Below are positions 17,999 to 52,260 of a stretch of 64,000 nucleotides of DNA, one piece after another (the first letter of the stretch is position 1; each line of letters begins with the position of its first letter). The stretch covers positions 408,711-472,710 of the forward strand of contig JBAQNJ010000001.1 in NCBI GenBank assembly GCA_049303675.1. Reading direction: 5' to 3'. The notes beneath the pieces were generated by a model. That model had not been told where the DNA came from, did no database searches, and saw only the letters and a list, made by a program, of their open reading frames with translations. The DNA is from Microgenomates group bacterium (GTDB lineage: Bacteria; Patescibacteriota; Microgenomatia; UBA12405). A program made the position numbers and the translations under genes.

Positions 17999-18850
17999 AT
18001 GATCGATTGGTTGAAGAAAAATTGGGCCATCATTGCTCTTTTAGTTATTGGTATTTTATGGTTGAAGAATAATTATGCCACTGCGCCTATTATGCCTTAT
18101 TCGGGTGGTGGTGTGGCCATGGACTCAGTTGGTTTTGCCGCTCCCTCTACCAAAATGATGGCTTTCCGCGAGTCAGCCCCGACTGATTCTGCCAATAGGA
18201 TAGTTATTCAAGACACCAGTCTGTCCCTGCAAGTCAAAGATGTTTCCCAAGAAATTACTACCATCGAGACTTTAGCCAAAGGTATGGGTGGATTTTTAGT
18301 CAACTCCAATTTATCCAAGCCTGATTCCGCCGCAAGTGGCAGTATCACTGTCCGAGTCCCCGAGGCTAGTCGTACCGATGCCCTTAATGCCTTCAAAAAA
18401 TTGGCCGTCAAGGTGGTCTCCGAGTCAGTTTATGGCAACGACGTCACCGATTCTTATGTCGATCTTCAGGCCCAGCTCGATGTTCTCACCAAAACTAAAG
18501 TCAAATACGAAGACATTCTCGGTAAAGCAGTCCGAGTCGAGGATTTGCTCAATGTCCAGCAGCAGCTGACCAATCTTCAGCAGCAAATTGACAGCATCAA
18601 GGGTCAGCAAAAATATTATGAGCAATCTGCCAAATTAACCAAAATATCAATCTATTTATCTACCGACGAGTTAGCTCTGCCTTATGCTCCCACCAATACT
18701 TGGCGCCCAGCTGTAGTCTTCAAAGAAGCCGTTCGTTCCCTCATCGGCTCACTCCGATCTTTGGGAAATCTTCTTATCTGGGGAATCGTCTATGTACCAG
18801 TCTTAATCCCAGTTGGATTAGTTTGGTGGTATTTTAAACGACGTGACTAA
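17999..18850 (+). CDS. DUF4349-like membrane-anchored protein
   Basis: N-terminal TM, central coiled coil (VRVPEASRTDALNAF...YVDLQAQLDVLT...LTNLQQQIDSIKGQ...ISIYL), C-terminal TM. Confidence 0.55.
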   Translation: MIDWLKKNWAIIALLVIGILWLKNNYATAPIMPYSGGGVAMDSVGFAAPSTKMMAFRESAPTDSANRIVIQDTSLSLQVKDVSQEITTIETLAKGMGGFLVNSNLSKPDSAASGSITVRVPEASRTDALNAFKKLAVKVVSESVYGNDVTDSYVDLQAQLDVLTKTKVKYEDILGKAVRVEDLLNVQQQLTNLQQQIDSIKGQQKYYEQSAKLTKISIYLSTDELALPYAPTNTWRPAVVFKEAVRSLIGSLRSLGNLLIWGIVYVPVLIPVGLVWWYFKRRD

Positions 18851-31995: not shown

Positions 31996-32085
31996 AGTCT
32001 ATTATATCCAATTAATTTAATTTCCGAAGACTTGCGGTTATAAGACTATTGTGAGAATTTTCTTTACTGCTATAATCGTTTTATT

Positions 32086-33720
32086 ATGACAAAAACTCTC
32101 AATATTTTTCTTGCCCTTTTCCTTACTACTTTTTCCCTCTCCTATTTTTTAGGATCTAAATTAAACATCTTAGTCCAAGCCCGTGATGAAGAGGATTCTT
32201 CAAATTGTGGCTACACCTGTCCCGTTATCCATTGGACATGGCAAACACGCGAAGTCGACGAAGCCGAGCACTATGAATATACCGACAAAGTAATCGATGT
32301 AGCCGGTCATTATGGTAACTGCCCCAATAATTATTCTGTTTATTCACAAGACAACACAAAATGTCGAAAAAATAATGGTAATCACGAAATAATCAATCGC
32401 CCTTGGGTTGACAGTACCTACAAATGCCCTTCAGGCTACCAGAGCAATCCTGGCCACAGCAATTGTCGTCAGCTTATTGCTACTACCTACAAAAATACCG
32501 ATCATTCGGCTGATGTCGCTTATGAAAAATCGTCAGACGGTAATCACTGTCACCGCCCCTCAGACGATACTCTCGAGGATACCTATGATATGGATCATGA
32601 CACCCGCGAAGATTTCAAAGACGAAAATAGTCAAAACAAAGATGCCACTCCAATTGCCTGTCCTACAGCTACACCAACCACTGCTCCTACTTCAACTCCA
32701 GTCTCAACTTCGACTCCCACCCCTACTCCCACCAGTGAAATAACCAACACTCCCACCCCCACTTCAACCGATGAAACTACCAATACTCCTACTCCCACCC
32801 AATCGGAGCAGTCAACTGGCACCCCTTCTCCCACAGTGACCCCTACCAACTCTCCTCATGTTGGTGGTGATGCTGGATCATCGAATAATAATAGTGCCCC
32901 CACTTGTAATGACTCCGACCCAGGCACTCCCCAAAATCTCCAAGCAATTGCCCTAGGTGGTGGCAAAGTTAAGCTAACTTGGGGCAATGCCTCCGGTCCG
33001 GTCACTTCATATGCTGTTGCTTATGGTCCATCTATCGGCAATTATTTATACGGTGATCCCAATGTTGGCAATGTCAACACTTATACCGTTCTTGCGCTCA
33101 GTCCGGGTGGCAAATATTGTTTCTATGTTCAGGCCCAAAATGGCTGTCGTGGTGGTAGTCCTTCAAATGTGGTTTGTACCAATCAGGGCGCTGGCTCACT
33201 TCAAGTCCTCGGTGCCAAGACGAACTACAATCCCTTAGTCGACGGCATTCGCCAGAGCTATGGCGGTTTGGTCTTAGGTACTTCAACTGAATTAATGGCC
33301 ACTGCTGAAGTTGTCTATTCAACTGAAAAACTACCCTCAGGCAATACTCTCGATGAGACTAAATCCATTAGTATTCCTAAAATCGGCATAACTCAAGCTA
33401 TCTATCATCCCCAAAAAATCGGTGATGATTTGACTGTTGGTCATAGAGAAGTTCTAAAAACCTCTCTCAATGGGGCCACAGTTTACTATGGACACAATGG
33501 CTATGATGTCTTCGGGTCACTTTATCTTCTCCGAGTTGGTGATGCTATTAAGTTACACAGTTCCGGTACTGTCTCAAATTATTCAGTCACCTCAACCCAG
33601 TTTGTTCACAAATCAAACGTTGAGGCTATTAAGAGTCAGGGTGATCAAATAGTTTTAGTCACTTGTAGTTTCACCCAACCAGATTATCGCATTATAGTTA
33701 CAGCTTCAATTCAAAAATAA
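32086..33720 (+). CDS. membrane-anchored Cys-rich / Thr-Pro-rich / FN3-like protein with C-terminal sortase domain
   Basis: N-terminal TM; Cys-rich segment; TPTPT repeats; FN3-like PQNLQAIALGGGKVKLTWGNASGPVTSYAVAYGP. C-terminal YYGHNGYDVFGSLYLLRVGDAIKLH...YSVTS...QIVLVTCS...YRIIVTASI matches the sortase GH...GD.I...Y.V...L.TC...R.IV.A pattern. Confidence 0.6.
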   Translation: MTKTLNIFLALFLTTFSLSYFLGSKLNILVQARDEEDSSNCGYTCPVIHWTWQTREVDEAEHYEYTDKVIDVAGHYGNCPNNYSVYSQDNTKCRKNNGNHEIINRPWVDSTYKCPSGYQSNPGHSNCRQLIATTYKNTDHSADVAYEKSSDGNHCHRPSDDTLEDTYDMDHDTREDFKDENSQNKDATPIACPTATPTTAPTSTPVSTSTPTPTPTSEITNTPTPTSTDETTNTPTPTQSEQSTGTPSPTVTPTNSPHVGGDAGSSNNNSAPTCNDSDPGTPQNLQAIALGGGKVKLTWGNASGPVTSYAVAYGPSIGNYLYGDPNVGNVNTYTVLALSPGGKYCFYVQAQNGCRGGSPSNVVCTNQGAGSLQVLGAKTNYNPLVDGIRQSYGGLVLGTSTELMATAEVVYSTEKLPSGNTLDETKSISIPKIGITQAIYHPQKIGDDLTVGHREVLKTSLNGATVYYGHNGYDVFGSLYLLRVGDAIKLHSSGTVSNYSVTSTQFVHKSNVEAIKSQGDQIVLVTCSFTQPDYRIIVTASIQK

Positions 33721-34235
33721 TGAATAAATACATTGTCCTCCTTATTGTTCTTGCCATTGGTGTTGGTTATTTTATGTCCAAGAATACCTTCAAAGGTCAA
33801 ACAGATATCAAAACTCCACCCACCATCGAGCAACAGCTAGGACTTCCTAATGGTTGGACCAAGGTGGAGACCTCAGATACCGATCTCAAATTAGAAAAAA
33901 AAGTTGAAGCTTCTCTCCAGCCCCAAATTGTTTTCAAACAAATAGTCTCCGATGAAGCCACTTCTCCCGCCAAATATACTAATACTATTATTGCCGGTGC
34001 TCGCTCTGCCATTCCTTCATTAAAAATAACCGACGATAAGAGAAGCTCGACCGATACACTTTATACAGCCTTAATTACCGGTAGTTACCTCAATCGTGGT
34101 CAAAAAGTCAACATCCTTCAGCGAGTCTATATTAAAAGTAACAATGTCTTCGTCATGACAGCCTCGTATAACGGAGATCTGAGTGATGAGATAAACAAAA
34201 TTTTTGACAGTCTGGTCAAAGAGAAGAGTTTATAG
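33720..34235 (+). CDS. hypothetical membrane-anchored protein
   Basis: 171 aa with an N-terminal TM segment. Confidence 0.4.
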   Translation: MNKYIVLLIVLAIGVGYFMSKNTFKGQTDIKTPPTIEQQLGLPNGWTKVETSDTDLKLEKKVEASLQPQIVFKQIVSDEATSPAKYTNTIIAGARSAIPSLKITDDKRSSTDTLYTALITGSYLNRGQKVNILQRVYIKSNNVFVMTASYNGDLSDEINKIFDSLVKEKSL

Positions 34236-42758: not shown

Positions 42759-44378
42759 ATGACAATCATGTCTCTTCGCGATCTTTTCAAATATGTCAGT
42801 CTCAAGAAATCACACAGTATTTTTTCAGCTAGTCTTGTCCTCGGGATTACCTTCGGATTATCGGCTATTCTCGGGTTTCTCCGGAGTCGTTTTCTCTATG
42901 CTCAGTTTTTCAACTGCTGTGTCTTAGAGCTCGATGCTTACAATGCAGCCTTCCGGTTGCCCGATTTAATCTTCAAATTACTAGTTACCGGTGCACTTTC
43001 AGCGTCATTTATCCCTGTCTTTAGCTCATATTTACACAAAGATGAACACAAGGCATACGAAGTAGCCTCATCTGTGATAAATCTACTTCTGATTGTCTTT
43101 ACCCTCGCTTCACTCTTGGTCTTGATCTTTGCCAAGCCTTTGTCTGGCATAATTGCCCACGGGTTCACCCCCGAGCAACTAGTACTCATGACTAGTCTGA
43201 CACGCATTTTATTAATAGCCCAGGTTTTCTTCCTCATTAGCAACTTCTTGACTGGTATGCTCCAGGTTCACCAGGTATTTATTATCCCCGCCCTTTCACC
43301 CATTGTTTACAATATTTTTATTATTCTCTCTATCTTCATTTTAGCCCCGACCATGGGTATTTATGGAGTAGCCATTGGCTCAGTCGTTGGTGCCTTTTTT
43401 CATTTAGCCATTCAAATTCCCACCGCCAAGGCCATGGGAGTCAAGTATCGTTTTGAAATCAAAACTCAGCTCGCTGGAGTCAAAGAAGTCATTAGACTCA
43501 TGTTACCTCGCAGTTTATCCCTAGGATTAGGTGAAATCGAGAATACAGTGACTTTGTTCTTCGCTAGCAGTTTGGCAGCCGGCTCTATCTCTCTTCTCAA
43601 TCTAGCCATGCAACTAATGTACTTACCCAGTCGAATTTTTGGGACTACAGTCGGTCAAGCATCACTCCCTATTCTTTCCAAAAACATCGCCCGCAACGAG
43701 CTAGATTTATTTAGAGATACTGTTCGTAAGACAATTTCCCAAAGTTTGTTTATTGCCGTTCCTATCACTGTTTTAGTTCTGGTCCATCGCCTAGCTATTA
43801 TCCGCATTGCCTTTGGTACCCGCCAATTTCCGTGGGCTGCTACTCTGCTGACAGCCAAAACTTTGGCCTATCTTACTCCAGCCATTGTTTGTCAAGCTGT
43901 CATTCAAATACTCGTCAGAGCCTTTTATGCCATCCACGATACCAAAACTCCACTTAAAGTTTCTTTCTTCTCTCTGGCCATCAACATTTCCTCAGCCTAT
44001 TTTCTGATTAATTACACCGATCTCGGAATTCTGGGACTAGCCATCAGTGCCTCACTTGGGAATCTCACCCAATGCCTTGGTTTATTTTATCTGTTCATCA
44101 AAACAGTTGACGGCGCTGGATGGCAGCAGACTTATTGGCACTATTTCAAAATATTACTGGCCTCTTTTATATTGGGCCTTACTTCTTGGGTCTGTGTTCA
44201 GTTTTTTGATTTATTTGTGCTCGATACCTCCCGAACCATCAACTTAATAATTTTATCCTCTCTCTCCGTTTTAATAAGTATATTTGTCTATTACTTCATT
44301 GCTATTTATCTACAAATTTCCGAAATATATGATTATCAACACTATTTTGGCAAGCTAACTAGATTTTTCAAAAGATAA
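42759..44378 (+). CDS. murJ: lipid II flippase MurJ (MviN)
   Basis: 539 aa, about 14 TM segments; LPRSLSLGLGEIENTV...GQASLPILS conserved region. Confidence 0.85.
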   Translation: MTIMSLRDLFKYVSLKKSHSIFSASLVLGITFGLSAILGFLRSRFLYAQFFNCCVLELDAYNAAFRLPDLIFKLLVTGALSASFIPVFSSYLHKDEHKAYEVASSVINLLLIVFTLASLLVLIFAKPLSGIIAHGFTPEQLVLMTSLTRILLIAQVFFLISNFLTGMLQVHQVFIIPALSPIVYNIFIILSIFILAPTMGIYGVAIGSVVGAFFHLAIQIPTAKAMGVKYRFEIKTQLAGVKEVIRLMLPRSLSLGLGEIENTVTLFFASSLAAGSISLLNLAMQLMYLPSRIFGTTVGQASLPILSKNIARNELDLFRDTVRKTISQSLFIAVPITVLVLVHRLAIIRIAFGTRQFPWAATLLTAKTLAYLTPAIVCQAVIQILVRAFYAIHDTKTPLKVSFFSLAINISSAYFLINYTDLGILGLAISASLGNLTQCLGLFYLFIKTVDGAGWQQTYWHYFKILLASFILGLTSWVCVQFFDLFVLDTSRTINLIILSSLSVLISIFVYYFIAIYLQISEIYDYQHYFGKLTRFFKR

Positions 44379-44427
44379 TCTTTCTGTTTGTGTTTTAATT
44401 TGGCCCAAATATATATATACTGTTTAT

Positions 44428-44991
44428 ATGCCAGTCAAAAAGGAGATGTCTTTTTTACCAGACGAAGAGGATGTCAACTCTCTCTCGGCCCGTGTCATCC
44501 GCTGGGTCACCACTGTTGGGCGTTTTGTTATTGTCTTTACCGAGCTAATAGTTATTTGCGCTTTTTTATCCCGTTTTTGGCTCGACCGCACCAACTCTGA
44601 TTTATCCGAAGTTGTCCGTCAGCAAAAAGCCATTTTAGAAAGCACCTCAGAGTTTGAAAATGATTATGCCCAGCTCCAAAGACGCCTAGAACTTATCCAG
44701 AAAATATATGCTTCTCAGCCAGAATATCAGACCAAAGTTGATACTCTCATCCAGAGTACCCCCTCCGATATCAATTACAACAGTCTTACTATTACCCACG
44801 ATCCCGACAAAAAAGAAGTTTCCGCCATCATCAATCTCTCTGCCTATCAAGAATCATCCATTGTCAACTTTATCACCAATTTAATTGCCAACCCCAAAAT
44901 AAGCTCAGTCGATATCAAGAAAATTGAAAAAAGGTCCAATGATAATAAATACAATGTCAATTTGTCATTAGTTTTTTCCCAAAAAGTATGA
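44428..44991 (+). CDS. PilN-like type IV pilus/competence assembly protein
   Basis: Short cytoplasmic N-terminus, single TM, periplasmic coiled-coil domain; 187 aa. Confidence 0.4.
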   Translation: MPVKKEMSFLPDEEDVNSLSARVIRWVTTVGRFVIVFTELIVICAFLSRFWLDRTNSDLSEVVRQQKAILESTSEFENDYAQLQRRLELIQKIYASQPEYQTKVDTLIQSTPSDINYNSLTITHDPDKKEVSAIINLSAYQESSIVNFITNLIANPKISSVDIKKIEKRSNDNKYNVNLSLVFSQKV

Positions 44992-45641
44992 GCCTAAACA
45001 TCGACAATCAGGTCAGTCGAATGAGGCCATTGTTTGATTTTATAAAAAAACAACAAGAAAATCGTCAATTCGTTAGGTCGGTTGAAATTACCGCCACTTT
45101 TGTCTTAATTACCTTTTTTCTAATTTTTGCCGTCAGACCAACCATCATCACTATCGCCAGTCTTCGTGGTGATATCGAATCGAAGAAAATCCTCAAGTCA
45201 GAATTAAAAAACAAAATCAATCAAGTTATCCAGGCACAAGACCTCTTTTCCCAAGTCCAAGAGCGATATCAGGTCATAAACAGTAGTCTCCCCGATAGGC
45301 CCAACTTTTATGATGCTGCCGACATAATTACCCAAATTTCCCAAAAAAACAGCATCACCCTCAACTCAATATTATTTGATTTAGAGGTAGTGCCATATAA
45401 AAACGAACCGAGTGTCAAATCATACAGCCTCCAAATCGGAGTTAGTGGATCTTTTGACAGTGCCCTCAATATTGCCTCAGAGTTACTCAAAAACCGTCGT
45501 ACCGACAACATTAGTTCCCTCAACTTTACCACTGGTCTTTCTCCCAATCAGAAAAGCGCCAGCCCCAGCGCCAGTTCCGGAGTCATCACCTCATTTTCCA
45601 CTCATTTTTATTATTGGCCAGCCACTTATGGAAAAAAATAA
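44988..45641 (+). CDS. PilO-like type IV pilus/competence assembly protein
   Basis: Single TM followed by a coiled coil and an alpha/beta domain; translationally coupled to the PilN-like gene. Confidence 0.4.
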   Translation: MSLNIDNQVSRMRPLFDFIKKQQENRQFVRSVEITATFVLITFFLIFAVRPTIITIASLRGDIESKKILKSELKNKINQVIQAQDLFSQVQERYQVINSSLPDRPNFYDAADIITQISQKNSITLNSILFDLEVVPYKNEPSVKSYSLQIGVSGSFDSALNIASELLKNRRTDNISSLNFTTGLSPNQKSASPSASSGVITSFSTHFYYWPATYGKK

Positions 45642-45831
45642 AATATCGGGATATCTCCTTTTAATTAGTGTTTTTACCTTTGCAGCCGTCTTTATTTATA
45701 TTGTTCAAAAAAGTTACGATGGTATGATGAAACCAATCCGTGACGTCAAACAGAGTGTCATAATTAAGCCAATTAATCCCAATTTTGATCTTAGTACTTT
45801 AGATGAAATTGAAAAAAGAGGTACCCCATGA
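45628..45831 (+). CDS. small single-TM protein
   Basis: MEKNKISGYLLLISVFTFAAVFIYIV; 67 aa. Track ORF 45412..45831 overlaps pilO-like; the internal ATG is more likely. Confidence 0.3.
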   Translation: MEKNKISGYLLLISVFTFAAVFIYIVQKSYDGMMKPIRDVKQSVIIKPINPNFDLSTLDEIEKRGTP

Positions 45832-47120
45832 AAAAGGAATTTAAATTCCCTACTATTATTGGTGTTGGGTTTTTGCTCATCTCTGTTTTTGTAGGCGTCA
45901 AGTATTCCACTAGAACAACTACTACCAGTTCAAACGCCTCAGGTAGTTGTCAGCCTGACAATGTCCAGATAACCAATCTCACCCACAATAGCGCTAGCTT
46001 ATCATTTTTAACTTCATCCAAATGTCAGTCCACCGTCTCTCTTGACAATCAAATTATCAAGGATCTCAAGGCAGAGACATTAAATATACCCGAATTATCT
46101 TCTCGGATTCATTATTTTTTTATCAATAATCTCAAGGAAAAGACCACCTACAACTATTCCATTATTTCTGGAGGCAGTACTTACCAAGAAAAATCCTACA
46201 GTTTTATCACTGGCTCTACGCCGATTAGTGGTACTCCCAACTCAAATTTGGCCTGGGGTAAGGTATTCTCACCCGACGGCAAAACCCCGGGTAACGCTCT
46301 TGTTTTTCTAAATATATCTGGGGCCTATCCCCTATCTTCGATGGTCACTACCAATGGCAACTGGTCGATTTCTCTGGCCAGTAGTTTTAATGATACTCAG
46401 ACAAATTGGTTCACCCTCTCGGATACTGTCTCCTCCGAAGATATTATTGTCTATTCCGAAGATGGAGTTTTTACTCAAGTTACCAATTCTACATCACGCA
46501 ATAATCCTGTCCCCGATATCATTATTGGTACCAATTCTCTGGATACTACAAATTATGACACTGCTAAAAATAGTAGTACCGGTCAAGTCGACTCTATCTC
46601 TCCAGTTGTCGATCAAAAAAAAGTCGATATTGCCAATCCTCGCGAGGGTGATATGCTCAATGTCTTGCGACCTGATTTTTTCGGCAGTGCCCCCAACAGT
46701 ACCCAAGTCATTATTGAAGTCCACTCTGACACAGTCATCAATGGCCAAACAACCTCTGACACCAGTGGTAATTGGCATTGGTCACCCCCCCAGAATCTTG
46801 AGCCAGGTCAGCATACTATCACTGTCAAATCACTCAATAAAAACACTGGTATCTGGGAAACAATCACCCGCTCATTTACAGTTCTAGCCTCCGACAACCT
46901 TTCCAGCCCCAACTTCGAGGCATCTGGATCTGCTTCTACACCCTCACCCGCAGCCACATTAGTTTCCACCCTAGCCCCCACGAAGACTCCGGTTCCTACA
47001 ATTCGGACTGCCCACCCTAGTACTACCATCCAGCCGCCAGTTACTGCCAATTATCTGCCTACCATCGTCATATTTATTTTCTCTTTTCTTTTTATATTAA
47101 TCTCGTTTAAACTATTGTAG
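45828..47120 (+). CDS. secreted Ser/Thr-rich surface protein with FN3-like repeats and C-terminal TM anchor
   Basis: N-terminal TM/signal; FN3-like VQITNLTHNSASLSF; C-terminal hydrophobic tail LPTIVIFIFSFLFILISFKLL. Confidence 0.45.
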   Translation: MKKEFKFPTIIGVGFLLISVFVGVKYSTRTTTTSSNASGSCQPDNVQITNLTHNSASLSFLTSSKCQSTVSLDNQIIKDLKAETLNIPELSSRIHYFFINNLKEKTTYNYSIISGGSTYQEKSYSFITGSTPISGTPNSNLAWGKVFSPDGKTPGNALVFLNISGAYPLSSMVTTNGNWSISLASSFNDTQTNWFTLSDTVSSEDIIVYSEDGVFTQVTNSTSRNNPVPDIIIGTNSLDTTNYDTAKNSSTGQVDSISPVVDQKKVDIANPREGDMLNVLRPDFFGSAPNSTQVIIEVHSDTVINGQTTSDTSGNWHWSPPQNLEPGQHTITVKSLNKNTGIWETITRSFTVLASDNLSSPNFEASGSASTPSPAATLVSTLAPTKTPVPTIRTAHPSTTIQPPVTANYLPTIVIFIFSFLFILISFKLL

Positions 47121-48061
47121 TGAGTAAAATATTATTTCAATGGCGTTATCAAATTTTAACAGTAGTTTTTTTGCTACTTTCACTCACCGGTACAATGTAT
47201 TTAGTTGGATATAATCAGGATAATCGAGACAAAGCAGTTGGTAATGACAAGTGTCAGGCTGGCCAAAAATTGTGTCAAGAAAATAAACAGGGTCAAAATA
47301 CCGGCTATCTTTGTGAATGTCTCACCGAGCTAGACCCCAACGATTGGCGCTGCACCACCCAAGATCTAAAAACATGCCCCACCGATAGTGGAGGAGTTGA
47401 TCCCAGTTTTTTTGCTTGTGACCCTCAGGGTAGTATGACTATTGCCGGTCGATGTCTAGTCGCCAAATCAGGATCAAAAATAGATATTGCTTTCAAGTAT
47501 AATTGTCCGGACAAATTTGGGATGAGTAATGGTTGTCAACAAAACGAATCAGTTGTTCAAAATGTCACTAGTGTTTGTTTTGAAAATAATTTTTGTGGCA
47601 CTCAACAAATTGATAGCAAAACAGGCAGCTGCTTCATTAGTGTAGAAGACCATAATGGCTGCAATAATACACCCACAAAGCTACCTTCACCTACTCCCAC
47701 CAAAACACCAGTTCCCACTCGCACACTCACTCCAACACGTACCCCCACCCCAACCAAGACTCCTACTCCTACAAAAACACCTACAATTACGCCTTTTAAC
47801 ACCTCTATTCCTACATATCCAGTTACCAGTACACCAACTCAAGTTGCCACCAACACTCCTACAAATACTCCAACCAATACTCCCACTGGCACTGTTGCTC
47901 CCACAAACACGCCAATGTCTACAAATACCCCGACTGTTATTCCCACTGGACCCAGTCCTACTCGGATAATATTACCCAATGCTGGTTTTGATTTTCCCAT
48001 TCAGGCATTGTCAGTGGTTGGTATAATCACCACACTCTTTGGATTATTAATTCTTCTCTAA
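47120..48061 (+). CDS. secreted Cys-rich / Thr-Pro-repeat surface protein with C-terminal LPNAG plus hydrophobic tail
   Basis: Signal/TM, 16 Cys in the first 170 aa, (TPTPTK)n repeats, and C-terminal RIILPNAGFDFPIQALSVVGIITTLFGLLILL. Confidence 0.45.
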   Translation: MSKILFQWRYQILTVVFLLLSLTGTMYLVGYNQDNRDKAVGNDKCQAGQKLCQENKQGQNTGYLCECLTELDPNDWRCTTQDLKTCPTDSGGVDPSFFACDPQGSMTIAGRCLVAKSGSKIDIAFKYNCPDKFGMSNGCQQNESVVQNVTSVCFENNFCGTQQIDSKTGSCFISVEDHNGCNNTPTKLPSPTPTKTPVPTRTLTPTRTPTPTKTPTPTKTPTITPFNTSIPTYPVTSTPTQVATNTPTNTPTNTPTGTVAPTNTPMSTNTPTVIPTGPSPTRIILPNAGFDFPIQALSVVGIITTLFGLLILL

Positions 48062-48062
48062 A

Positions 48063-48986
48063 GTGAAAGGTAATATAAAAATATTTTCATTACTAGAAGC
48101 ACTTCGACCGAGCCAGTGGATCAAAAATTTAAGTTTATTTGCCGCCGTTATTCTCAATGGACAGCTCTTCAACCTCGAGAGTTTAGTTCCCAGTATTTTA
48201 GCTTTTGTTACATTTTGTTTTTTATCATCATCCTCATATTTAGTGAATGATATTTTAGACAAAGATAAGGATATTCAGCACCCCTACAAAAAAAATCGCC
48301 CCATAGCTAGGGGAGATGTCTCTACCACTGTGGCTACATTTGCCAGCTTTTTTCTGCTCTTTACTGGTCTAGGTATTGCCATGATTATTAGCTCAGAATT
48401 TTTTTTCATCTCGCTTCTCTTTATTATTTTGCAGTATTCCTATTCGTTCTTTTTCAAGAAAAAAGCAGTTGTGGATATCGCCGGAATATCCTTGTTTTTT
48501 ATTATACGTGCCTTTGCCGGTGAAATTGCCTCTGGCTACCACTTACCTATCTGGATTATGTTGACAGTCATTTTTCTGTCTTTATTTATTGCCAGTGGAA
48601 AACGCCGCAGTGAACTCATCAATTCTGGAAAGAAGACCCGTGCCGCACTCAGTGGATATGGTCGGTCACTTTTAAATTTTTATACCACGATGTTTGCTGT
48701 TTGTACTCTAATTGGTTATTCTATGTACGCTTTTTTTGAAGACAAACTAAAGTTTCAGGGCATTATTCATGAATTCTTGTTGGATAATTTTCCTGCTGCT
48801 ATCGATCGAAAGTGGTACATGTTGTCCATCATTCCTGTTATCTACGGAATTATGCGCTACGGACAAATAATTTTTGAAATGCAAGAGGGTGAGAGGCCCG
48901 AACGAGCCATTGCCACCGATATACCACTAATAATTTCCGTGCTCTCTTGGGGGTTGATGATAATTACTATTATTTATGTCCTTTAG
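48063..48986 (+). CDS. UbiA-family prenyltransferase, decaprenyl-phosphate phosphoribosyltransferase (DPPR synthase)-like
   Basis: N-terminal LRPSQWIKNLSLFAAV (RPxQWxKN signature of the DPPR synthase subfamily), NDILDKDKD (NDxxDxxxD) and HPYKKNRPIARGDVS. Confidence 0.75.
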   Translation: MKGNIKIFSLLEALRPSQWIKNLSLFAAVILNGQLFNLESLVPSILAFVTFCFLSSSSYLVNDILDKDKDIQHPYKKNRPIARGDVSTTVATFASFFLLFTGLGIAMIISSEFFFISLLFIILQYSYSFFFKKKAVVDIAGISLFFIIRAFAGEIASGYHLPIWIMLTVIFLSLFIASGKRRSELINSGKKTRAALSGYGRSLLNFYTTMFAVCTLIGYSMYAFFEDKLKFQGIIHEFLLDNFPAAIDRKWYMLSIIPVIYGIMRYGQIIFEMQEGERPERAIATDIPLIISVLSWGLMIITIIYVL

Positions 48987-50487
48987 TTCTGGTTTGTTAT
49001 TTTTTATTGCTTTAATTACCCGATTTTTTGGTTTAACTTGGGGTGGTGGTTTCCCTTTCCATCCAGATGAAAACAACATGGTCAATGCCATTGTGCAAAT
49101 GACCCCTATTAATTTGAATCCTCATTTTTTCGCCTATGGCCAATTTCCCCTATATTTAGGATATATTACCCAGCTAATTCTCGGGTTGCCTCACAACGCT
49201 ATCGCTATTACCTATGTACTCCGTTTCTGGTCAGCCATCTTTTCCACCTTGTCCGTTTATCTTTTTTATCTTATAAACCGGCAACTATTTCCCAAAATAA
49301 ATCCTTTTATTGCCACCTTACTTTTTATATTTACTCCGGGACTCATCCAAATAGCACATTTTGGTACCACTGAGAGTTTGTTGGTTCTTATTTTTTTGTC
49401 GACTATATATCTCTCCCTAAAACTCTATGGTCAGCCATTTCAATACAAATATTATTTTTGGCTAGCTTTAATATGTGGCATTGGAGTCTCTTCAAAACTC
49501 AGCTCCATAGTCTTTATTTTTCCAATATTGTTAGTTTCTCTGATAAGTTTTTTTAAACATAATAAAAAGCTTCATGTAGTTTTTTTTACTTTTTACTTTT
49601 TACTATTTACTTTAGTATTTTTTATATTATTTTCTCCATTCAATATTTTGTCCAGAGCTGATTTTCTCTCAGCCCTTAAATATGAGACCGAAGTCGCCAC
49701 CGGCACATTGTCAGTGTTTTATACTACTCAGTTTAAAAACACTTTACCTTATATATATCAAATAACCCATATCTTTCCATATGTTATTGGACTGCCCCTT
49801 AGTCTATTCTCCTTATTTGGTTTATGTATGTCGTTTAGAAAATATCATCAGTCCCTGTTCATAGTCTATGCCTCAGTTATTTTTTATTTTCTCTATTTTG
49901 GCCAGACATATGTCAAATGGACCCGTTTTATGTCACCTATATTTTTTATATTTCCCCTTATCGCCGCCATCTTTATTAATCAAATCCACTCCAAGAATTA
50001 TAGATATTTTGTTCTGATTGCTGCCATTCTCCCTGGGATATTTTTCCTGAAACTATATCTGTATCCCGATATTAGAATCACCGCTTCAAAATGGATAATC
50101 GAAAATCTACCCGACAAAACAACCATTTTGTCCGAAGGTGGCAATGTCGTCAACATTCCGGTTCTGGAAAATAACTTTGAAATAGACAATTACGACTTTT
50201 ATCAATACCATGTTGACACCTTATCCAAATCTATCGCCAAATCTGATTACATTATCATTCCTTCACGTCGAGTTTTTAAGAATTATAACTATACCTATTA
50301 CCAACATTTATTTGATGGCACACTCGGCTTTTCAAAAATCAAAGAGTTTGTCCCCGACAAATATCTGTTTTTTAATCCAGAAAATGCCGAGGAAACATGG
50401 ACAGTCTTCGACCGTCCTACCATCAGAATTTACCAGAAAACCACTCAACTGTCCCTTGAAGAATACTCTAGTTTATTAGAAAATTAA
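48976..50487 (+). CDS. GT-C polytopic membrane glycosyltransferase (GT39/GT83-like)
   Basis: First loop FHPDENNMVN...NPHFFAYGQFPLY; more than 10 TM segments; paralogue of 50506. Confidence 0.6.
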   Translation: MSFSSGLLFFIALITRFFGLTWGGGFPFHPDENNMVNAIVQMTPINLNPHFFAYGQFPLYLGYITQLILGLPHNAIAITYVLRFWSAIFSTLSVYLFYLINRQLFPKINPFIATLLFIFTPGLIQIAHFGTTESLLVLIFLSTIYLSLKLYGQPFQYKYYFWLALICGIGVSSKLSSIVFIFPILLVSLISFFKHNKKLHVVFFTFYFLLFTLVFFILFSPFNILSRADFLSALKYETEVATGTLSVFYTTQFKNTLPYIYQITHIFPYVIGLPLSLFSLFGLCMSFRKYHQSLFIVYASVIFYFLYFGQTYVKWTRFMSPIFFIFPLIAAIFINQIHSKNYRYFVLIAAILPGIFFLKLYLYPDIRITASKWIIENLPDKTTILSEGGNVVNIPVLENNFEIDNYDFYQYHVDTLSKSIAKSDYIIIPSRRVFKNYNYTYYQHLFDGTLGFSKIKEFVPDKYLFFNPENAEETWTVFDRPTIRIYQKTTQLSLEEYSSLLEN

Positions 50488-50545
50488 AAATTTGTTAATT
50501 AAAAATTGAATAAAAATTTAAAATTAAAAATTAAAAATTATTATC
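50487..50545. repeat. AT-rich (aaattaaaaatt)n repeat forming the leader/N-terminus of the GT-C gene
   Basis: Contains a 28-mer identical to korA 28673-28700. Encodes (TTG)NKNLKLKIKNYY. Confidence 0.7.
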
Positions 50546-52260
50546 CAATAGTAATAATTTTTATGTTGGCACTGTCTGTTAGATTATATGGTCTCAATTG
50601 GGATCAGGGCCAACACCTCCATCCCGATGAGAGAATGATTGTCATGGTCACCGAGAAAATATCTATCCCCACCACAAACCTCTTTTCGGTCGATTCTACC
50701 CTCAATCCTCATTTTTTTGCCTATGGCTCACTGCCAATCTATCTCTTGAAGTTCACTTCGTCATTACTCGTACCCATTTTTCCCCAAATTGGTTCTTATG
50801 AGCAAATAAATTTGTTAGGTCGAGTTATCTCGGCAATTTTTGACTCACTTACAGTTCTTCTGATTTTCCATATTTGCCAACGAATGTTCGAGAACACCCG
50901 ACAAAGCTTATTGGCTGCCTTAGTCTATACAGTCTCCATTTTACCCATTCAGTTGTCTCATTTTTATGCCGTAGACACTATTCTCACTTTTTTTATCTTC
51001 TTCACCCTTTTACAGCTTATAGCCTATTTTCAAAATCAAAAAATATTTAATTTACTGCTTGCTAGTATTGGTATTGGATTGTCTCTGGCTACAAAAATTA
51101 GTGCCACTGTCTTAGTTGCCTCACTCGGTACTAGTCTTGTTGCCGGTATCTTACTCACAATTAGAAATCAAATTTTTTCCCACAACCAACCGCTCCATCA
51201 AAAAATATCATCATTTATTGGGCACATATTCAGTCTAAAAAAGCTCAGACATTCACGTCTCTCAATAATAATTAAAGTATTTTGTTTGCTAATATTTACT
51301 TCTACTATAGCTGCGGTTGTTTTTATAGTTTGTGAACCATTTGCCCTCATCGATTACCCCAATTTTATTCGGCAGATAATGGAACAGCAGGCCATGACCA
51401 AAAACGCCTTTGTTTTTCCCTACACTCTCCAGTATGTCAACACCACTCCGTATTTATACCAATTAGAAAATATATTTTTATGGGGATTAGGTCCAATTAT
51501 TGGGACATTATCTTTTATTGGGTTTATCATCGTTAATATCAAACTCGTCAAAGGTCTTATTGTCCCTGGCAATGATCAATCAGAGGGTGCCCAATTAATT
51601 ATCCTCACATTTTTTTTGGCATATTTTTTCGTTGTGGGTGGTTTTGCTATCAAGTTCATGCGGTATTGTTTACCTCTTTATCCAATTTTTATAATTTACG
51701 CTGCCCATTTACTTACTAGTATTAAATCAAAGTTTGTTGTTTTATTTATTTTCTTAGGACATCTATGTTTATTGTTTGCTTTTTTGGCTATTTATCGTTT
51801 GCCCAACACCCGTGTCACCGCCACCAATTGGATAAACAGTCAGGTTCCCCAAGGTTCAACTATTCTCATCGAGCATTGGGACGATGCCCTACCCCTAGGT
51901 TATTTAAACAATCTTAATCAAATCTCTTTGCCGCTTTATGATAGTGACAGTGATCCCCATAAATGGAACTTTATCAACCAAATGTTGGTCCGTGGCGACT
52001 ACATAATTATTGCCAGTAACCGCCTCTCTACCCCACTTCCAAAATTAGTCAACTGTGACCAGTTACCCGAAGACAAGTGTTATCCCCTTACTGCTCGGTA
52101 TTATCGTGATTTATTCGCGGGTAATCTAGGTTACACAAAAGTCGCCGAATTTACCAGCTATCCTACTTTATTTGGATTTTCTGTCAACGATCAATCAGCT
52201 GATGAGTCCTTTACTGTCTATGATCATCCTCAAATAATGATATTTAAAAAGACATTTTAG
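50506..52260 (+). CDS. GT-C polytopic membrane glycosyltransferase (GT39/GT83-like), paralogue
   Basis: LHPDERMIVM...NPHFFAYGSLPIY; 584 aa. TTG start per track; the start is uncertain and the next ATG is at about 50563. Confidence 0.6.
   Translation: MNKNLKLKIKNYYPIVIIFMLALSVRLYGLNWDQGQHLHPDERMIVMVTEKISIPTTNLFSVDSTLNPHFFAYGSLPIYLLKFTSSLLVPIFPQIGSYEQINLLGRVISAIFDSLTVLLIFHICQRMFENTRQSLLAALVYTVSILPIQLSHFYAVDTILTFFIFFTLLQLIAYFQNQKIFNLLLASIGIGLSLATKISATVLVASLGTSLVAGILLTIRNQIFSHNQPLHQKISSFIGHIFSLKKLRHSRLSIIIKVFCLLIFTSTIAAVVFIVCEPFALIDYPNFIRQIMEQQAMTKNAFVFPYTLQYVNTTPYLYQLENIFLWGLGPIIGTLSFIGFIIVNIKLVKGLIVPGNDQSEGAQLIILTFFLAYFFVVGGFAIKFMRYCLPLYPIFIIYAAHLLTSIKSKFVVLFIFLGHLCLLFAFLAIYRLPNTRVTATNWINSQVPQGSTILIEHWDDALPLGYLNNLNQISLPLYDSDSDPHKWNFINQMLVRGDYIIIASNRLSTPLPKLVNCDQLPEDKCYPLTARYYRDLFAGNLGYTKVAEFTSYPTLFGFSVNDQSADESFTVYDHPQIMIFKKTF

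Follow-up and report, generated by a model that had tools for sequence, protein, structure and literature searches.

A Microgenomates sortase apparently grafted onto a protein of its own substrate class, with a tethered sorting-signal-like element and a conserved partner gene

The open reading frame (ORF) at positions 32086 to 33720, on the forward strand, of a 64-kb stretch of DNA from a Microgenomates group bacterium (64,000 nucleotides of contig JBAQNJ010000001.1, the window hereafter) encodes a protein of 544 amino acids (aa) in which a substrate-like ectodomain is followed by a sortase catalytic domain. To our knowledge characterised sortases are all separate, membrane-anchored enzymes that find their substrates by a membrane-retained C-terminal signal. 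In the protein described here the enzyme has most probably been joined to a body taken from its own class of substrates. The sortase barrel appears to take the place of the transmembrane (TM) helix and basic tail with which such substrates end, and an element resembling their sorting signal is found internally, on a tether ahead of the barrel. An identical protein (P0001, 100% identity), encoded on a contig of 998,417 bp, has already been deposited as 'MAG: sortase [Microgenomates group bacterium]', where MAG denotes a metagenome-assembled genome. It is therefore already annotated as a sortase, and its logic has so far gone unrecognised. Full-text literature searches on sortase families of the candidate phyla radiation (CPR) or on natural sortase-substrate fusions found none described, engineered tags only.

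The catalytic domain (aa 428-544, 33367 to 33717, forward strand) is assigned on the basis of a Pfam match, its fold and its triad. The chain stops at the last strand of the barrel and carries no C-terminal TM segment. The Pfam model Sortase (PF04203) matches aa 428-541 over profile positions 1-123 of 125, with E=1.4e-16 and 60.8 bits against a gathering score of 26.6, and the generic NCBIfam sortase model TIGR01076 gives 42.5-46.4 bits, above its cutoff of 39.35. A preliminary description of this DNA, made from the letters alone, had recognised the His, Cys and Arg elements of a sortase in the C-terminal region and had proposed the PF04203 search and a structure prediction as checks, and on all these points it is borne out. 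The strings that it quoted are present (YYGHNGY, GDAI, NYSV, LVTCS and YRIIVTAS in the ORF), and His470 (33493-33495), Cys527 (33664-33666) and Arg535 (33688-33690) are invariant in both homologue alignments (n=29 and n=49). Alignment places the three residues in the GH(R)G, TC(T) and (H)R motifs known from class C and class A sortase structures. An AlphaFold2 model covering aa 268-544 shows the sortase beta-barrel with predicted local distance difference test (pLDDT) values of 85-97 (aa 417-544), and with this model Foldseek retrieves sortases of classes A, C, D and E, the E values starting at 6e-9 and the root mean square deviations being 3.2-4 Å over 130-145 residues. At the level of sequence the best matches, both in the Protein Data Bank (PDB) and among the NCBIfam subfamilies, are of class C (8t28, E=6e-6; NF033745). 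The class-specific NCBIfam models (C, D, E, F and GN) all score 18-36 bits against cutoffs of 140-166, class C giving 32-36 bits against a cutoff of 160 and classes D, GN and E 18-28 bits, and no class is assignable. Judged by these comparisons the domain belongs to the sortase superfamily but to no curated class, and we predict with considerable confidence that the protein is an active sortase.

The architecture is shared by 36 further homologues (P0002-P0037), in which PF00041 (fn3) and PF04203 occur together. Scanning of one genome per species gave 17 loci, most of them in entries titled Candidatus Shapirobacteria or Patescibacteria MAGs, and several under other titles that are probably mislabelled. 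An exhaustive HMMER search of 1.84 billion representative proteins, with aa 368-544 (tether and sortase) as the query, returned 142 matches at E<=1e-3. The weaker ones are ordinary sortases of 160-250 aa in which the barrel alone is aligned, and since only about 60 of the 142 align through the tether, the clade is small (about 60 clusters among the 1.84 billion) and restricted to CPR bacteria (Shapirobacteria/Microgenomates).

The evidence for a substrate origin comes from relatives that have no sortase domain. Seven proteins sharing the N-terminal domain and/or the fibronectin type III (FN3) domain (P0038, P0039, P0040, P0041, P0051, P0060 and P0064) end in (Q/K)VLGAST-[MLY][APG]xTG, followed by a hydrophobic helix and then a basic tail. 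P0039, of 420 aa, is collinear with the window protein through leader, Cys-rich domain, Thr/Pro (TP) linker and FN3 domain up to QVLGA(S/K)T, with 36% identity over 408 aa (E=6e-47), and then ends in MAGTG, a TM helix and a basic tail. The Cys-rich domain of P0040 matches that of the window protein with E=6e-55, and both P0040 and P0051 end in the same type of tail. The long extracellular N-terminal region reported in the preliminary description is present, but it is homologous to sortase substrates along its entire length and not simply an anchored stalk. Gene context was inspected for four of the seven relatives with canonical tails (loci L001, L002, L025 and L026), and in all four a separate sortase gene comes after the substrate gene, overlapping it in three cases and lying one gene further on in the fourth. 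These stand-alone genes encode sortases of 184-216 aa with the classical basic and TM N-terminal anchor; in comparisons with two of them the fused domain shows 22-35% identity only. Since a split, substrate-then-sortase arrangement exists, the window ORF would be its fused counterpart.

The tether that joins the two halves (aa 367-427, 33184 to 33366, forward strand) is conserved and predicted to be flexible, with pLDDT values of 39-60 and a short helix at aa 383-391. After the FN3 domain it reads VLGAKT-NYNPLVDGIRQSYGG-LVLGTST-ELMATAE-VVYSTE-KLPSGN and then enters strand beta1 of the barrel. The first VLG box, VLGAKT (aa 374-379), placed by alignment together with the NYNPLVDGI helix (aa 380-388; 33205 to 33249 for both, forward strand), aligns with VLGAST of P0039, beyond which the homology to the substrate ceases, and residues L375, G376, N380, N382, P383 and G387 are invariant in family alignment A1. 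The internal sorting-signal-like element, VLGTST-ELMATAE (aa 396-408, 33271 to 33309, forward strand), has a putative scissile bond at T406|A407, and its core lies some 20 residues ahead of the catalytic barrel. When the tether was compared by hhalign with the seven real sorting signals, GG.VLG..TeL..TAe was placed on GQVLGAST-MA.TG with a probability of 92.9% and E=3.6e-7. Across 49 sequences, 24-74% identical to the window protein, invariance outside the barrel is limited to L397 and G398 of the VLG box, T406 of the L-x-x-T-A/G element, and P417. Relatives without an FN3 domain have LPKTG, LPTTG, FPKTG, LPATA or FPPTG at the same position. Because KLPSGN and the sortase domain come after the pentapeptide, and not a hydrophobic helix and basic tail, the window protein appears substrate-like but not a canonical substrate.

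KLPSGN itself (aa 415-420, 33328 to 33345, forward strand) stands directly before beta1. Around the invariant P417, conservation in the 49 sequences reaches at least 90% at L416, S418 and N420, and the motif may simply cap the barrel. Kinship with P0126, a giant Ig/cadherin-repeat protein of 2565 aa in which 18 near-identical repeats with SAESLPSGASLDETTG resemble KLPSGNTLDET, was considered and judged coincidental, the match being a common Ig/cadherin strand motif (SLPSGASLDETTG). The idea that KLPSGN is the counterpart of an LPQSG tail was likewise abandoned, as the two do not align.

Other tails were noted in the course of these comparisons. Between the substrate gene for P0038 and its stand-alone sortase gene lies a gene (L025, 6661-7623) for a secreted protein of 320 aa that ends in ILGSST-DQNKN, a TM helix and a basic tail. 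Since the protein has the VLG box without an xxTG pentapeptide, the [VI]LG(A/S)ST box may be the most constant determinant of the C-terminal signal in these CPR bacteria. A third type of tail, with a VLG box and LPxxN, occurs in large secreted proteins of 884-954 aa encoded a few kb from the fusion in three loci (L008 2647-5301, L009 2015-4681 and L017 1844-4708, all on the reverse strand). These end in G(E/T)(V/I)LG-x6-(C)LPE(E/K)N-I(V/I)PY, a TM helix and a basic tail, and have no homologue in the window. The NCBIfam sorting-domain models gave no match to the tails of the canonical substrates or to those of the two tail proteins of the window described below.

The leader (aa 1-32, 32086 to 32181, forward strand; MTKTLNIFLALFLTTFSLSYFLGSKLNILVQA|RDEED) is the sole hydrophobic segment of the protein, with an h-region of about 20 aa. 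It had been taken for a membrane anchor. It ends in a V-x-A site, conserved as [VILT]-x-A across the family and followed by acidic residues, and it aligns with the leader of the canonical secreted substrate P0039. On account of this conservation and of the alignment with the leaders of secreted substrates it is more probably a Sec signal peptide that can be cleaved off than a permanent anchor.

The module that follows (aa 33-192, 32182 to 32661, forward strand), recognised from Cys positions and homology and belonging to no Pfam family, contains eight Cys residues (positions 41, 45, 79, 93, 114, 127, 155 and 192; 13 in the whole protein) and not the 16 counted previously. It is homologous to the N-terminal domains of the canonical substrates P0038, P0039, P0040 and P0051. 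The position is hypervariable, and other family members have TSP1 repeats, DUF4215 or different Cys-rich modules there. At the orthologous and fully syntenic locus L022 (4232-6001) TSP1 repeats stand where the window has the 8-Cys domain, whereas the FN3 domain, tether and sortase are still about 60% identical. The difference looks like a cassette exchange of an exposed module, such as is typical of exposed adhesins. Homology between the 8-Cys domain and the Cys-rich domain of the LPNAG protein described below was rejected; only the TP repeats match.

Next come the Thr/Pro-rich linker (aa 186-262, 32641 to 32871, forward strand), 68% Thr, Pro and Ser and of varying length among family members, and the FN3 domain (aa 274-366, 32905 to 33183, forward strand). 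Pfam fn3 (PF00041) matches aa 281-363 with E=1.3e-10 and 41.7 bits (gathering score 25), the sandwich is modelled by AlphaFold2 with pLDDT above 90, and four Cys residues (274, 345, 354 and 364) are invariant. FN3con (PDB 4u3h) is matched in sequence with E=2.3e-9 and in Foldseek with a TM-score of 0.74 normalised to the target. The conserved core of the family starts at Cys274 and comprises the FN3 domain, the tether of about 60 aa and the sortase; everything before Cys274 is hypervariable. The preliminary description had correctly identified the TP linker, the FN3-like module and the non-canonical architecture that results from placing Cys-rich, TP and FN3 parts ahead of a sortase, and taken as a whole its interpretation is partly supported.

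It had missed the most constant companion of the enzyme, which is the gene immediately downstream (33720 to 34235, forward strand), encoding a protein of 171 aa with an N-terminal TM helix and a PsbP/DcrB/LpqN-fold ectodomain. The start codon of this apparently co-transcribed partner overlaps the stop codon of the sortase (ATAATGA). Wherever the sequence beyond the sortase can be read, this gene comes next, as in L022 and in the loci L010, L012, L013 and L017, whose other neighbours differ, and the linkage holds too for distant members without an FN3 domain and for the minimal members P0095 and P0125. The AlphaFold2 model of the partner has a pLDDT of 85, and Foldseek returns 3lyd, PsbP, LpqN, MTC28, DcrB and Eag chaperones, the E values running from 1.7e-7 to 1e-4 and the TM-scores lying at about 0.5-0.6. 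Pfam DcrB (PF08786) scores below threshold on the window partner (21 versus 27.2 bits) and is a precomputed assignment for the homologues P0088, P0089 and P0093. From its modelled structure the protein can be placed among the envelope proteins of the PsbP/DcrB/Mog1 fold, an alpha-beta-alpha sandwich, by fold and not by function. It contains an LPxGW sequence, similar to KLPSGN, which is most probably a structural strand motif of the DcrB/PsbP-type fold. No such gene follows the stand-alone, TM-anchored sortases in the two pairs with downstream genes checked, and the other two contexts are without a DcrB-family gene. A functional link between sortase and partner is likely. Since in this lineage a sortase that is anchored by itself goes without the partner, and one that has the partner goes without an anchor, the partner may serve to tether or organise the enzyme at the membrane.

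How might such a protein work? We tentatively favour a secreted, partner-docked extracellular sortase with a tethered signal that is cleaved to self-anchor the ectodomain. The order from the N-terminus is Sec leader, variable Cys-rich adhesin-like module, TP stalk, FN3 domain, tether of about 60 aa with the signal core, and sortase barrel. Once the leader had been removed the enzyme would be without a membrane anchor of its own, and the TM-anchored PsbP/DcrB-fold partner (33720-34235) would hold it at the membrane. The tethered signal would be offered to the active site of the same chain or of a sibling molecule, and once the chain had been cut after Thr406 the N-terminal ectodomain would be passed on to a nucleophile of the cell wall ('self-sorting'). 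Still bound to the partner, the catalytic domain could then act in trans on tail-bearing proteins, for example that encoded at 47120-48061. We infer each of these steps, from leader cleavage and partner docking to motif engagement, cleavage and the identity of the nucleophile. On balance the motif probably does engage the active site; that it is actually cleaved, with self-anchoring of the ectodomain, is conceivable and a good deal less secure.

Cleavage is favoured because the domain order, with variable module, stalk, FN3 domain and signal, is that of a wall-anchored protein, and because the N-terminal module is swapped as a cassette like that of an exposed adhesin. It is also favoured because a canonical LPKTG or LPTTG on a flexible tether beside a sortase would be hard to protect, and because engineered fusions of the sortase SrtA with an LPXTG motif cleave themselves, as far as the account of Mao 2004 given in PMC4658790 goes. 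In its most specific form the proposal is one of self-sorting by a single polypeptide, which would attach its own cassette-swapped adhesin module to the CPR wall, or conceivably to a host-envelope amine during episymbiosis, with the partner as docking platform; this we regard as doubtful.

Several observations weigh against self-cleavage. Ala follows the Thr in 34 of 37 FN3-type members, against Gly in all seven real tails, and an Ala at this position could mark an uncleavable mimic. P0125 has LPDAG, without the Thr, P0055 has FPATD, and P0120 and P0130 are without any VLG/LxxT element. Two complete members, P0095 (216 aa) and P0125 (215 aa), are minimal and carry next to no cargo, and because these exist and some members lack the motif, self-anchoring of cargo would not be the general purpose of the clade. 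Cleavage would moreover leave the enzyme unanchored and, for its own cargo, single-use. The motif is not seen docked in its own active site in the AlphaFold2 model, in which the low pLDDT of the tether means that the result neither supports nor excludes a lid. The Ala or Gly of the internal motif was also compared with that of the PPVT(A/G) tail encoded in the same genome, and no covariation was seen, in two data points that are too few to be informative (TA/TA in the window, TA/TG in L022 and L020).

The observations just listed are in part those expected of the main rival model, a tethered pseudo-substrate, in which the VLG-LxxT(A/G) element would sit uncleaved in its own groove and gate the active site, the enzyme would act in trans only and the N-terminal modules would be accessory targeting or adhesion domains. 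The motif is kept beside the barrel even in minimal members without cargo, the shift of P1' from Gly in real tails to Ala in FN3-type members is accounted for, and class C sortases are known to have lids that precede the barrel (PMC11131087), solved structures of this class being among the Foldseek matches. We consider a lid somewhat less likely than cleavage. The DP[WFY] lid motif of class C was sought in aa 367-427 and none was found, the AlphaFold2 model has no docked conformation, and in distant members a fully canonical LPKTG or LPTTG on the flexible tether would be hard to shield from cleavage. Collinearity with complete substrates, and the position of stalk and variable module on the N-terminal side, would also be left unexplained.

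A further model, which takes up the membrane anchor of the preliminary description, is that of an ordinary housekeeping sortase, permanently anchored by its N-terminal segment and carrying a long decorative stalk, for which the tether motif would be a functionless relic. In its favour, an N-terminal anchor is found in the sortases of classes A, D and E, the leader has a long h-region, and candidate LPxxG substrates are encoded 13 kb away. A relic would not be expected to keep L397, G398, T406 and P417 invariant over sequences as divergent as the 49 compared, however, and the conserved V-x-A site and the homology of the leader to those of secreted substrates argue against a permanent anchor. 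With an anchor at the N-terminus the TP stalk would also keep the catalytic domain well away from lipid II and from substrates retained in the membrane, and the universally linked partner gene is not explained. We judge this model improbable.

Still less probable is that the fusion is the substrate of another, classical sortase, which would cut the internal motif, anchor the ectodomain to the wall and free the sortase domain as a soluble enzyme or by-product. Classical TM-anchored sortases of related CPR genomes, to go by the gene pairs, process tails with a VLG box, and the internal element matches such tails. No second sortase, however, is found in the 64-kb window or in the flanks of about 20 kb at 12 fusion loci, for the related Ch65 genome 'a sortase' is reported (PMC7143001), and the motif is without the TM and basic retention signal on which classical sortases rely. 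An ORF at one of these loci (L008 13895-14500, reverse strand) was considered as a second active sortase and rejected, as it is without the catalytic His and Cys. It encodes 201 aa, resembles a stand-alone CPR sortase (phmmer E=9e-7), may be a pseudo-sortase, and adjoins a family-2-like glycosyltransferase gene (assigned by eye) and two uncharacterised genes. A frameshift or mis-assembly joining a substrate gene to a downstream sortase gene is effectively refuted, for although adjacent and slightly overlapping genes of this kind are known in related genomes, the same architecture recurs in about 37 FN3-type and at least 13 FN3-less sequences obtained independently from many samples, the junction is a dedicated conserved tether and not a TM tail joined to a TM anchor, and the fused domain has no more than the 22-35% identity to stand-alone sortases already noted.

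Comparison with known systems helps to define what is different here. Class C (pilus-specific) sortases, like the window protein, have a cleavable signal peptide, probable in our case, and a conserved segment N-terminal to the beta-barrel that could fill the active site. The window protein differs from them in having no DP[WFY] lid motif, no C-terminal TM anchor and no pilin genes nearby, and in that its tether segment is homologous to a real sorting signal and preceded by a complete substrate-like ectodomain. The housekeeping classes A, D and E share the fold and the His-Cys-Arg triad. The class E motif is LAxTG, which resembles the [ML]AxTG signals of this lineage. In contrast to these classes the window protein matches no class model at cutoff, has no evident uncleaved N-terminal anchor and is 544 aa long, compared with about 200.

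In dedicated pairs one sortase is genetically coupled to one surface protein, as it is in the fusion. The class GN 'marine' sortase with its single target (TIGR03784) is such a pair. The streptococcal AbpA-SrtB locus is another dedicated sortase-substrate gene pair (PMC4974636), and the CPR pairs (L001, L002, L025 and L026) have the same Cys-rich domain and VLG-box signal as the window protein. Unlike these, the fusion is one polypeptide in which the TM helix and basic tail of the substrate and the TM anchor of the sortase are absent, with a tether and a separate PsbP-like protein instead. The engineered SrtA-LPXTG-target fusions (Mao 2004 as cited in PMC4658790) also have enzyme and motif in one chain, with intra- or intermolecular self-cleavage at T|G according to that citation. 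They are artificial and run enzyme-motif-cargo, whereas the window protein runs cargo-motif-enzyme; its cargo would be the acyl donor, as in natural sorting, in a cleavage that is putative. What would set the protein apart from all of these systems, as read from its sequence, is the combination of an enzyme fused to a substrate body, the replacement of both TM elements, a signal kept internally and a separate PsbP-fold membrane protein accompanying it.

Such a protein would represent a different organisation of surface sorting, with the recognition motif in cis, an enzyme in place of the membrane tail and a separate membrane partner. The CPR or Patescibacteria are a huge and mostly uncultured group whose episymbiotic lifestyle depends on surface proteins, and the fusion provides a clonable test case for how their cells display rapidly diversifying adhesin modules. 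If self-cleavage were true the protein would be a natural counterpart of engineered sortase tags and a possible tool for protein ligation. There is in addition a gap in annotation, as none of the curated models searched recognises the lineage-specific VLG-box signal or the PsbP-like partner.

Two further genes of the window encode possible substrates in trans, and the TP-rich regions and C-terminal hydrophobic tails previously noted in their products are confirmed. The first (47120 to 48061, forward strand; 313 aa) encodes a leader, a Cys-rich domain, a TP linker and the tail PTRIILPNAG-FDFPIQ-TM-LILL. This tail is almost invariant in seven homologues, GPSPTRI(I/V)LP[QNE][TSA]G[VFI][ED]FP.Q being followed by a TM helix and LILL, with LPQTG (in two), LPQSG, LPESG and LPNAG as variants of the pentapeptide; it has no basic tail and no VLG box. 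Because the tail is so nearly invariant, the LPNAG to which the preliminary description drew attention appears to be a genuine conserved LPxTG-like element and not a chance occurrence. The protein is a reasonable candidate and plausible as a trans substrate, its link to the fusion sortase following only from co-occurrence. The second (45828 to 47120, forward strand; 430 aa) is TP-rich, has a Big_13 domain and ends in PPVTAN-YLPTI-TM-KLL, and its homologue in L020/L021 ends in PPVTGD-TAPTI-TM-KFIK. With two independent sequences to go by, the case for this protein as a trans substrate is a weak one.

These are the only two secreted-type ORFs with C-terminal hydrophobic tails in the 64-kb window, and a scan of 422 ORFs for a leader and a C-terminal TM tail gave no further clear LPxTG proteins near the fusions. 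Both belong to a conserved cluster (42759-52260 in the window, 5590-14978 in L020, and L021) that encodes MurJ, a PilN-like protein (187 aa), a 217-aa ORF without family match, a short TM protein, the two tail proteins, UbiA and two PMT_2 proteins. The cluster co-occurs with the fusion in the window and in the L020/L022 genome at least, and part of it is visible at the end of L007. PMT_2 proteins are glycosyltransferases similar to protein O-mannosyltransferases, and UbiA is a prenyltransferase. As a speculation, the cluster suggests a module for surface-protein export and O-glycosylation that acts on TP-rich linkers.

The other neighbours of the fusion ORF in the window are housekeeping genes. 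Further away (17999-18850, forward strand) an ORF of 283 aa has a C-terminal hydrophobic helix and a KRRD tail, with no recognisable LPxTG-like or VLG motif, and is assigned to no family. The best promoter-like site on the forward strand near the fusion ORF (32049-32076; TTGTGA, 16 nucleotides, TG-TATAAT) ends 10 nucleotides before the ATG at 32086, which would imply a leaderless mRNA or one with a very short leader; promoter-like sites in this region are not above chance (seven found, 6.4 expected). The genes of the window are mostly on the forward strand. Of its 32 consecutive 2-kb segments 31 have a negative GC skew, the cumulative skew falling almost linearly to -4.1. One-directional GC skew is also found in complete genomes of related Microgenomates of the order UBA1400, where Kadnikov et al. 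read it as possibly reflecting unidirectional replication (PMC7143001).

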